In this document: positions 19,887 to 22,800 of the stretch, one piece after another | Numbering within the stretch: the first letter of the stretch is position 1 | Layout of the letters: the number at the start of each line of letters is the position of its first letter | Assembly: GCA_030537855.1 (NCBI GenBank) | Contig: JAUNVD010000002.1 | Location: 19,745-83,744, forward strand | Direction: 5' to 3' | DNA: 64,000 nucleotides | Source of the DNA: Tissierellia bacterium | Lineage (GTDB): Bacteria; Bacillota; Clostridia; Tissierellales; Peptoniphilaceae | The notes under the pieces: model-generated | Databases searched by the model: none | Told to the model about the DNA's origin: nothing | Seen by the model: the letters and a program-made list of their open reading frames with translations, nothing else | Position numbers and translations under genes: made by a program

Positions 19887-22800
19887 ATGAGAAAAGAAAA
19901 AAGTAAATATTTACGACTACTATTTATATTAATGTTAATACTTGGAATCATCATTCCAACATCGATTTTTGCAGCAGAAAAGCCTTTTACACGTATTTTT
20001 AATACAAAGATAAAAGGTGAGATAAAAATCACAGGAAATACTTTACAAAGACCGGCTGATAAAACGGAAAAAGCAGAAAATGCATTAGCAGGAAAAACCA
20101 CAGATGGAAACAATCAATTTAAAATGAAAAAGCTGGATGTGGATACTGATGCCGGTACCTCCAGTTCATCTTCAGCTAATTTGGTTTTTGCTCCTAAGGC
20201 AAAAGTGGAAAAGGCATTTCTGGTTTGGGGTGCGACTACAACAGGAGGTACACCTGCCACTGTTAATGCCGGGCATCCACCTACCATTAAATTTAAAACC
20301 CCTAAATCAAAAAATTACCAAGTTATTTCACCTACAGGGTGGAATCAATTTAGTGAAGGAAAAAAAGATTATAGCGCCTATGCCGATGTAACAGAATTAG
20401 TAAAATCGGGAGGAGCTGGAACCTACTGGGGAGCAGATATTCCTCAAAGCACAGATGCGACGGATCGCTATGGTGGGTGGTCTTTAGTAGTCGTCTTTCA
20501 AAATGATGATCGACCAAAAAACGACTTATCCATATTTTTTGGACATAAAGTTGTTAAGAATACCACAGGTATTCAAATTCCTATAACAGGAATCCAAACC
20601 CCTGCAGTTGGGCCAGTTCATGCAAAGGTAGGATTTGTCGCCTGGGAAGGTGATGCAAAGTATAATAATGACCATGCATTGATAAATGTAAATGGTAAAT
20701 TTGAAGAACTTTTCAACCAAACATCGCCTAAAGATAATTTCTTTAATTCAACCATTTCAGATAATGGTGCATATTTAACCAATCGTAATCCTGCTTATGT
20801 TAACAATATGGGTATCGATGCAAAAATTATTAATATTGATGGAAAATTAAAAAATAGTGCTACCAGTGCAAAATTTAAATTTGACAGTGGTGGAGACTGG
20901 TATTATCCCACGATTCTAACCAGTGAAATCGAAATGTATGCACCGGATCTTAAGGTGACAAAAACGGTAGAAAATCTTTCAGGGCATACCCCGGCGAAAG
21001 AGGGAGATATTTTAGAATATACGGTTCATTTTGAAAATATAGGCATAGACACGGCCATGCATACCGTAGCTAAGGATTTGATACCTGATGGGTTGGAATA
21101 TGTGCCAGGTACCATTAAAGTTACTAACGGACAAAATTCAGGGCCTAGGACCGATGCCAAAGATGATGACAGTGCAGAGTATGATACAGCAACAAAGAAC
21201 CTTATCCTTCGAGTGGGAAATAATCCGACCAATAACAATACAGATCCCGAAGGAGGCTCATTGGAACATGAACAGGTTTATGAAGCAAAATTTCAAGCAA
21301 AAATCTTACCAGAAGGAGTGGGAAGTCCCCTTACTAATGAAATAAAAGTAACTTATGATGGTACTGACGGAACCCCTGCCAATACAGGTTTAGATGGAAG
21401 CGGATCTGTAACCACTCCTACAGAAGAAGCCAATCCACAAATTAAATTTACAAAAACATCAAATAAAGATTCAAGTTATCGATTGGTAAAAGGAGAAACC
21501 ATTACCTATACCTTTACAGTAGAAAATACTGGAAATGTTACGTTAAAAGATGCCAAAGTTACTGACCCAATGGAAGGCCTTAATCCAAAAGAAATAAAAT
21601 TGGATAAAACCACTTTAGCACCGGGAGGAGTAGCTACAGCCTCAGCCACCTATACCATTACACAAGATGATGTAGATGCTGGGAAAGTGGAAAATACTGC
21701 AACAGCAACGGTAAAACCTCCTAGGGGAGAATCCTTCTCTACAACAGCAACATCTACAGTTCCAGGATCGCCAGAACCGAAAGTCCTTTTTACAAAAACT
21801 TCGGATAAAAACTCGGATTATCGTTTAATAGCAGGAGAAACCATTACCTATACCTTTAAAGTGAAAAATACGGGAAATATCACTTTAAAAGACCTTACGT
21901 TAAATGACCCAATGAAAGGGTTAAAACAAAATGGTAAGGAAGTAGAAGGTGGAGTTCTTACATTAGATAAAACCACCTTGGCACCAGAAGAAACTGCTAC
22001 AGCCACGGCTACCTACCTCATCACCCAGGCAGATGTAGATAAGGGCTCAGTGACCAATAAAGCAATAACAAAAATGAAAACACCGGATGGTACGGAAATC
22101 CAAAGAGATGCCACAGCTACCGTACCTGCATCTCCAGGGCCTGATGCAACATTTGAAAAGACGACAGATAAAAAACCGGACTATAATTTAAAAGTAGGAG
22201 ATACCATTGAATATACCTTTACCTTAACCAATACAGGGAATTTAACATTAAAAAATCTTTCCCTGACTGATGAAATGCCTGGTTTATCCACACCGACATT
22301 TGATAAAACAGAATTGGCACCGGGAGGAGTAGCTACAGCCAAAGCTACCTATACGATTACCCAAATAGACGTGGACAAGGGATCAGTAACCAATAACGCA
22401 GTGGCAAAAATGACGACTCCTGATGGTAAGGAGATGCAAAGAAATGCAACAGCCACAGTACCGTCCAAGCCGTCGCCGGACTTTACCTTTGAAAAGACCA
22501 CTGATAAAAAACCATCCTATCGATTAAAAGTCGGAGATGTTATTACCTATACCTTTAAAGTGAAAAATACGGGAAATGTGACTTTAAACAATGTCCAAGT
22601 AACAGATCCTATGCCAAATTTATCTTCCTTTACCTTTAACAATGTTACTTTGGCACCGGGAGAGACTGAAACGGCCACAGCCACCTATACCATTACCCAG
22701 GCGGATGTAGATAACGGAGCCATTAATAATACGGCAACGGCTACTGTTACGCCACCATCAGGAACACCTATAGAAAAAGATGCTTCGGCAAGGGTACCGG

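Follow-up and report, generated by a model that had tools for sequence, protein, structure and literature searches.

Three paralogous surface proteins

We analyzed a stretch of 64,000 nucleotides (the window; positions 19,745 to 83,744 of contig JAUNVD010000002.1, Tissierellia bacterium assembly GCA_030537855.1) in which three paralogous genes are arranged head to tail on the forward strand, each of them probably monocistronic. Their products share an N-terminal domain of about 325 residues, here called the head, which an initial annotation made by a model from the sequence had been unable to assign to any family. As summarized in Table 1, in all three proteins a signal peptide precedes the head, and 2-13 DUF11/DUF7507 repeats form a stalk between the head and three SLH domains at the C-terminus. 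The signal peptides were read from the translations by eye, without a dedicated predictor, and the SLH domains were matched by Pfam with E-values of 1e-36 to 1e-37; three tandem SLH motifs are the feature by which SLH-anchored surface proteins are recognized, and each paralog carries them. In the stalks of paralogs 1, 2 and 3, Pfam found 13, 2 and 4 DUF11 stretches and 12, 1 and 6 DUF7507 stretches, and NCBIfam found 13, 2 and 7 TIGR01451 repeats. The first stalk domain (residues 356-491 of paralog 1) also matched TIGR04226, an isopeptide-forming domain.

Table 1. Features of the three surface-protein genes, with positions counted from the first nucleotide of the window
Feature	Position	Strand	Evidence and remarks
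Gene 1, paralog 1 open reading frame	19887-26372	+	2161 aa
Signal peptide, paralog 1 (MRKEKSKYLRLLFILMLILGIIIPTSIFA, cleaved before AE)	19887-19976	+	Basic N-terminus, hydrophobic core and A-x-A-type cleavage site, inferred from translation
Head 1, residues 31-355 of 2161 aa; all-beta, two-lobed, DUF3344-related	19977-20951	+	Alignments A1/A2/A5, AlphaFold2 model
Stalk, paralog 1; 13 DUF11-type / 12 DUF7507-type (CLIPPER/CLIPPER_2) repeats	20952-25655	+	Pfam, NCBIfam
SLH anchor x3, paralog 1 C-terminus	25656-26369	+	Pfam SLH E 3.7e-37, 3 stretches
Intrinsic-terminator-like hairpin past gene 1	26380-26409	+	13-bp stem, then T run
Gene 2, paralog 2 open reading frame	26609-29299	+	896 aa
Signal peptide, paralog 2	26609-26695	+	Translation, alignment A1
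Head 2, residues 30-364 of 896 aa	26696-27700	+	53% identity to head 1; tblastn E 9e-103
Stalk, paralog 2; 2 DUF11/DUF7507-type repeats, short	27701-28576	+	Pfam
SLH anchor, paralog 2	28577-29296	+	Pfam SLH x3, tblastn
Intrinsic-terminator-like hairpin past gene 2	29306-29335	+	
Gene 3, paralog 3 open reading frame	29793-34193	+	1466 aa
Signal peptide, paralog 3	29793-29885	+	Translation, alignment A1
Head 3, residues 32-364 of 1466 aa; loop insertion between KFKxP and GWN motifs	29886-30884	+	57% identity to head 1; tblastn E 6e-101
Stalk, paralog 3; about 6-7 DUF7507/DUF11 repeats	30885-33473	+	Pfam, NCBIfam
SLH anchor, paralog 3	33474-34190	+	89% identity to paralog 2 anchor
Intrinsic-terminator-like hairpin past gene 3	34228-34265	+	16-bp stem

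Signal peptide, head, stalk repeats and anchor make up the defining layout of fibrillar adhesins (PMC9210967, PMC12617251), and the three proteins possess the signal peptide, the tandem stalk repeats and the cell-surface anchor of that class. The Pfam architecture also places the head where it had been thought to lie, at the distal end of a stalk-plus-anchor protein. DUF11 and DUF7507 have recently been renamed CLIPPER and CLIPPER_2, and are shown or predicted to be isopeptide-bonded Ig-like domains that form the stalks of fibrillar adhesins with signal peptides, adhesion domains and sorting domains (PMC12617251). The stalks of all three window proteins are built from such CLIPPER domains; however, that work characterized the stalk and not a head of the type found here, and a term search did not find DUF3344, the family discussed below, in it. 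The window proteins differ from the fibrillar adhesins of Monzon et al. 2022 (PMC9210967) in being anchored by SLH and not by LPXTG. With the MSCRAMM or Cna-type adhesins of Gram-positive bacteria they share an N-terminal region placed on an isopeptide-stabilized stalk, which in those adhesins binds the ligand. In contrast to them, the window heads contain no Collagen_bind or SdrG_C_C match, the anchoring is by SLH and not by sortase, and adhesin domains of this type were not among the structural neighbors of the head. The sole Collagen_bind match (E 0.021) fell in the first stalk domain of paralog 3. The proteins are of a known type, namely fibrillar, adhesin-like surface proteins with a DUF3344-related head.

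A tblastn search of the whole window with head 1 disclosed exactly three copies, at the places that the initial annotation had indicated, and no fourth copy or remnant. Pairwise identity among the paralogs was 50-57% for the heads, 35-41% for the adjacent first stalk domains and 76-89% for the SLH tails, the tail of paralog 1 being 76% identical to both others. The SLH tails are either under much stronger constraint or homogenized by gene conversion. Across the three paralogs, 125 of the 325 positions of head 1 were invariant; they account for 46% of the positions predicted as strand or helix (80/173), as against 30% of the loop positions (45/152), an enrichment that fits the conserved core with variable loops that had been proposed from the sequence. 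The alignment also recovered all the motifs listed at that time, in the same order in the three heads, although three had been given slightly wrong: paralog 1 has HPPTIKFKTP, so KPPTI does not begin with an invariant K, and the motif given as (A/N)(D/I)IPQ should read A(D/N)IPQ(S/G)T. The insertion described for paralog 3 exists and comprises about 12-15 residues (MVTTDIIGSTP..SEIK), whereas the remainder of the 28-residue string then quoted aligns with GWNQFSEGKKD of paralog 1.

Relationship to DUF3344 and modular reuse

Searches with the window heads against Pfam (models up to 2025), NCBIfam and the PDB sequences (phmmer and two PDB profile searches) gave no match. DUF3344 (PF11824; gathering score 27.2 bits, profile of 275 positions) did not match the three window proteins at E<=0.1 or head 1 at E<=10. 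We looked for a confident match to a well-characterized family and found none: with the sequence searches empty and Foldseek TM (template modeling) scores of at most 0.29, the initial annotation was right in recognizing no characterized adhesin, lectin, protease or glycosidase family. It does not hold, however, that the head belongs to no family. While a word-indexed search returned 19 relatives only, an exhaustive profile search returned 8278 clusters (50% identity) with E<=1e-3 and, at the stricter cutoff of E<=1e-30, 3730, counts that are perhaps inflated by DUF11-only matches because the profile used (A2) includes some DUF11 columns. The size of the family is taken here only from the best 150 clusters, all of them near-full-length head matches with E<1e-108, in which the head was N-terminal in 146 cases.

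The link to DUF3344 came through these relatives. Collinear DUF3344 matches were present in 15 of 44 sampled members, over positions 25-261 (approximately) of the profile, and most of them were just under the gathering score (17-27 bits). Two relatives passed it (P0067, 33.5 bits; P0077, 28.9 bits), and head 1 aligned with P0067 over 325 residues with 35% identity (E 1e-55). These sequence comparisons place the head in the DUF3344 superfamily, as a divergent branch largely missed by the current Pfam model. Considering that the window heads have no DUF3344 match even at E<=10, the present model covers only part of a much larger family. The head domain is therefore neither unassignable nor rare: it belongs to no characterized family but to a very large existing one that overlaps DUF3344 (at least 150 full-length clusters, and the P0067 link), a poorly modeled tip domain. 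The two are homologous, both are extracytoplasmic and both are carried by large surface proteins (PMC9674854), but the window head has about 325 residues as compared with the 275 positions of the profile. The assignment brings no mechanism, DUF3344 being a functionally uncharacterized domain that occurs on cell-surface proteins of bacteria and archaea. DUF3344 proteins are presumed archaeal cell-surface proteins on Methanoperedens plasmids (PMC9674854), and a survey of fibrillar adhesins flagged an N-terminal cluster overlapping DUF3344 as of "ambiguous function" (PMC9210967). Sameness of the head family with "cluster 23" of that survey could not be shown, no accession being given there.

The nearest named relatives of the window heads were in Tissierellia metagenome-assembled genomes (MAGs). 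Relatives were found in Bacillota (Tissierellia, Evtepia, Eubacteriales, Peptococcaceae and Vagococcus), in Actinomycetota (Trueperella, Actinomycetaceae and Kribbella), in Chlamydiales, and among proteins of Bacteroidota type (proteins with sorting tails of the type IX secretion system, T9SS, and one Flavobacteriaceae Calx-beta protein). In these proteins the head was joined to stalks of DUF11/DUF7507, Cna_B, SdrD_B, Big_9/cadherin-like or Calx-beta domains, and to SLH, LPXTG-like (Kribbella) or T9SS anchors. In some giant proteins it was internal, as in P0020 (4061 aa; head at 2257-2597; three matched stretches in the protein), P0021, P0023 and the Chlamydiales protein P0041 (5166 aa; 531-924), so that the domain is not restricted to the tip position. 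In four metagenomic actinobacterial proteins of 809-845 aa (P0180-P0183), a shortened head formed the C-terminal end of fusions of an extracytoplasmic function (ECF) sigma factor (Sigma70_r2) with a zf-HC2 anti-sigma factor. The head-like domain of P0180 (approximately 569-845) was preceded by a membrane span, a Pro/Thr-rich linker and a DUF11-like domain. Since the membrane span and linker come before the head in P0180-P0183, the head is placed on the extracellular side, where a sensor would be, and this suggests that the head module can act as a signal-sensing domain.

A locus search for relatives was run with seven close sequences. Actinomycetota heads on the same DUF7507-rich stalk, in Trueperella sp. 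LYQ141 (L002; NZ_JBKIWQ010000015.1, 6001-7017) and in an Actinomycetaceae MAG (L003/L006), were 46-49% identical to the window head, nearly as much as the window paralogs are to each other. As far as identity values can tell, this hints that an entire adhesin gene may have moved from one phylum to another.

Thousands of large bacterial surface proteins with this head are named in databases after the stalk only ("DUF11", "DUF7507", "Cna B-type", "isopeptide-forming fimbrial protein"), and the part most likely to set the binding of the fiber is therefore invisible in annotation. What is added here is that the head appears as a confidently predicted autonomous fold, as divergent DUF3344 and as wired also to ECF sigma signaling; this is useful housekeeping for surface-protein biology and changes no concept. 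The head family is a clear target for a broader Pfam model, a crystal structure and ligand screening.

Predicted fold, conserved residues and proposed function of the head

AlphaFold2 modeled head 1 with high confidence (pLDDT 94.5, pTM 0.93; 22-sequence alignment) as an almost wholly beta domain of about 20 strands and two short helices, as expected for an independently folding conserved domain and not for the mere spacer that had been argued against from the sequence. Residues 1-160 alone (lobe 1) still folded confidently (pLDDT 93), but residues 1-22 lost their strands, so that the N-terminal hairpin appears to pair with the second lobe; a split at residue 160 is thus a non-ideal domain boundary. 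A Foldseek search of the full head against the PDB gave 26 matches at E<=1e-3, none of them close (TM 0.17-0.27, root-mean-square deviation (rmsd) 12-20 Å, identity 8-13%). The recurrent type among the neighbors was a protein of two lobes, each a beta-sandwich or jelly roll, as in GH86 C-terminal domains (probability 0.99-1.0), PNGase F, PNGase F-II, Cry5B, Cry11, PHM, PRD1 P3 and PM2 P2. Among viral models, only generic jelly-roll capsids and mycobacteriophage minor tail proteins were retrieved (TM at most 0.34). Like PNGase F, the GH86 C-terminal domains, Cry toxin domains II/III and double-jelly-roll capsids, the head is all-beta, has about 300 residues and forms two sandwich lobes. The values for these proteins (TM 0.21-0.29, rmsd 12-20 Å, identity 8-13%, no sequence-profile relation) set the head apart from them, and the resemblance is one of fold class only.

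Conservation was scored as presence in at least 80% of 44 diverse members, with parallel tallies over 33-44 members. At that level we found seven Asp (D54, D56, D58, D137, D226, D232 and D281), seven Asn (N21, N45, N46, N254, N257, N276 and N293), five Ser/Thr (T61, S64, S65, T139 and S258) and eight aromatic residues (F4, W84, Y114, Y132, Y150, W168, F256 and Y309), together with several Gly and Pro and with E224 (84%). No His, Cys, Lys, Arg or Gln reached 80% family-wide. Head 1 contains no cysteine at all. Most actinobacterial and other high-GC members carry a Cys...Cys pair, probably a disulfide, in the loop after the GNT motif (positions 25-35, approximately; consensus TC......CA.A; alignments A4/A5), where the window heads and their Bacillota relatives have QRP, QTP or QKP instead. 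Two candidates were rejected on these tallies. A thioester, isopeptide or ester cross-link within the head, as in thioester-domain (TED) and isopeptide adhesin heads, was discarded since Cys, Lys and Gln are not conserved, which leaves neither a Cys-Gln pair nor a Lys-Asn/Asp triad, and a PHM-like copper enzyme because there is no conserved His.

We consider it fairly probable that the head, at the distal end of a fibrillar adhesin-like surface protein, serves as its ligand-binding tip. Each protein would be exported by its Sec signal peptide and held non-covalently on a wall polymer by its three SLH domains, and a rod of 2, 7 or 13 CLIPPER (DUF11/DUF7507) isopeptide-type Ig domains would project the head off the wall. 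The fiber would end in the all-beta head, a divergent DUF3344 member of two beta-sandwich lobes whose N-terminal hairpin may pack against the C-terminal lobe. There, the head may recognize a ligand outside the cell, for which a glycan or another polymer is the most plausible candidate, and Ca2+ at the conserved Asp/Asn/Ser positions perhaps helps; Ca2+-assisted glycan binding is a reasonable guess, and only a guess. In this low-GC, Clostridia/Tissierellia-like bacterium, the paralogs probably present three variants of one tip, related but distinct, at three distances from the wall (stalks of 2, 7 and 13 repeats), and specificity or reach would then differ among them, given their divergent loops and unequal stalks. 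Of this picture, the domain layout, the confidence of the fold, the extent of the family, its tie to DUF3344 and the reuse of the module are directly shown, while binding as opposed to catalysis, a part for glycans or Ca2+ and a division of labor among the paralogs are inferred.

In choosing between ligand binding and catalysis, the evidence leans to binding: the head tops a wall-anchored stalk of isopeptide type, recombines freely with other stalks and anchors and has been recruited as an extracytoplasmic sensor end, its conserved set is rich in Asp, Asn and aromatics without the usual catalytic residues, and its beta-sandwich fold class is common to glycan-handling and receptor-binding proteins. 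Several points weigh against a ligand-binding tip. We infer adhesion by the head from the architecture alone. Lobe 1 had no significant Foldseek neighbor in the PDB (best E 0.2) and, as the matches of the full head are weak (TM at most 0.29, E about 1e-4), their glycan-binding-like flavor is only suggestive; moreover, some of these neighbors (PNGase F and PHM) are enzymes with the active site between two beta-sandwiches. The sigma/anti-sigma-fused versions lack the DxDxD loop, so that a Ca2+ site there cannot be universal. Finally, riboswitches such as those for c-di-GMP, frequent ahead of adhesin genes of clostridia, were looked for upstream of the three genes, and neither a riboswitch nor another regulatory RNA was detected there at the Rfam gathering score or at E<=1.

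A different reading of the same neighbors is that the head is a catalytic domain and the proteins "fibrillar enzymes", for example processing glycans or glycopeptides at an active site placed, like that of PNGase F, where the two lobes meet in a cleft. In fact, PNGase F and PNGase F-II (both with probability 0.87-0.95) and PHM are two-sandwich enzymes, a catalytic set could be made up of the invariant D56, D226 and D281, the near-invariant E224 and the invariant pair S64-S65, and Monzon et al. could not exclude catalysis for the cluster overlapping DUF3344 (PMC9210967). We nevertheless regard an enzymatic head as quite unlikely. The likeness to PNGase F-like proteins amounts to TM 0.21-0.25, rmsd 13-20 Å and 9-12% identity, no Pfam or PDB profile match places the head among the PNGase F-like glycoamidases, and no glycanase or peptidase model of Pfam or NCBIfam matched even at E<=10. 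The absence of conserved His, Cys, Lys and Arg excludes PHM-type copper sites and most hydrolase triads. The anti-sigma-fused relatives have Glu in place of D226 and lack the DxDxD loop, and use as an anti-sigma sensor domain suits binding better than catalysis.

It is unlikely, too, that the head lacks a specific external ligand and is instead a cap with a structural role, a steric shield, or a homophilic surface by which cells aggregate or an outer protein layer is built, because a cap would not require the roughly 20 polar and aromatic positions that are near-invariant in Bacillota, Actinomycetota, Bacteroidota and Chlamydiales, nor would it be recruited as the sensory end of anti-sigma factors. 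For such a role speak the SLH-anchored proteins that often form or decorate S-layers, the Methanothermobacter DUF11 proteins that stabilize cell aggregates (cited in PMC12617251), the layered coat that three paralogs with unequal stalks could build, and the reports of DUF3344 proteins simply as archaeal "cell surface proteins" (PMC9674854). That the N-terminal region serves mainly the export, folding or processing of a long fiber, as an intramolecular chaperone or cleaved pro-domain, is highly improbable: it makes no sense for the internal heads of P0020, P0021, P0023 and P0041 or the extreme C-terminal heads of the anti-sigma fusions, and no conserved cleavage motif follows the head. Beyond the ligand-binding tip that we favor, a bolder and rather doubtful proposal would make of the head a two-lobed beta-sandwich fold without solved relative that recognizes one conserved ligand class (such as a glycopolymer of the wall or of a host, with Ca2+ possibly involved) and serves in at least four phyla both as fiber tip and as ECF sigma/anti-sigma sensor, or else a new catalytic fold of "fibrillar enzymes".

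Transcription units and neighboring genes

Each of the three genes is followed by its own strong terminator-like hairpin (Table 1), which indicates that they are probably three separate transcription units. The GC content of the window is about 30-40%, and the neighboring genes belong to ordinary metabolism: FeoB, citrate synthase, isocitrate dehydrogenase, aconitase, a BcrAD/BadFG-type CoA-enzyme activase, a CitMHS-type symporter and an IclR regulator. Directly upstream of gene 1 (15075-19328, + strand) lies a 1417-aa fusion of two BcrAD/BadFG ATPase modules with a DUF2229 "CoA enzyme activase" domain, for which a functional link to the surface proteins is not apparent. Citrate synthase, isocitrate dehydrogenase and aconitase form one cluster (10561-14953, - strand), the oxidative branch of the tricarboxylic acid cycle, in a low-GC anaerobe-like genome. 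Further downstream, a flavin mononucleotide (FMN) riboswitch (RF00050, 110 bits; 44360-44474, + strand) overlaps the annotated GTG start of an energy-coupling factor (ECF) transporter S-component gene (44428-45150). The gene is presumably that of a riboflavin transporter, with its actual start further downstream.

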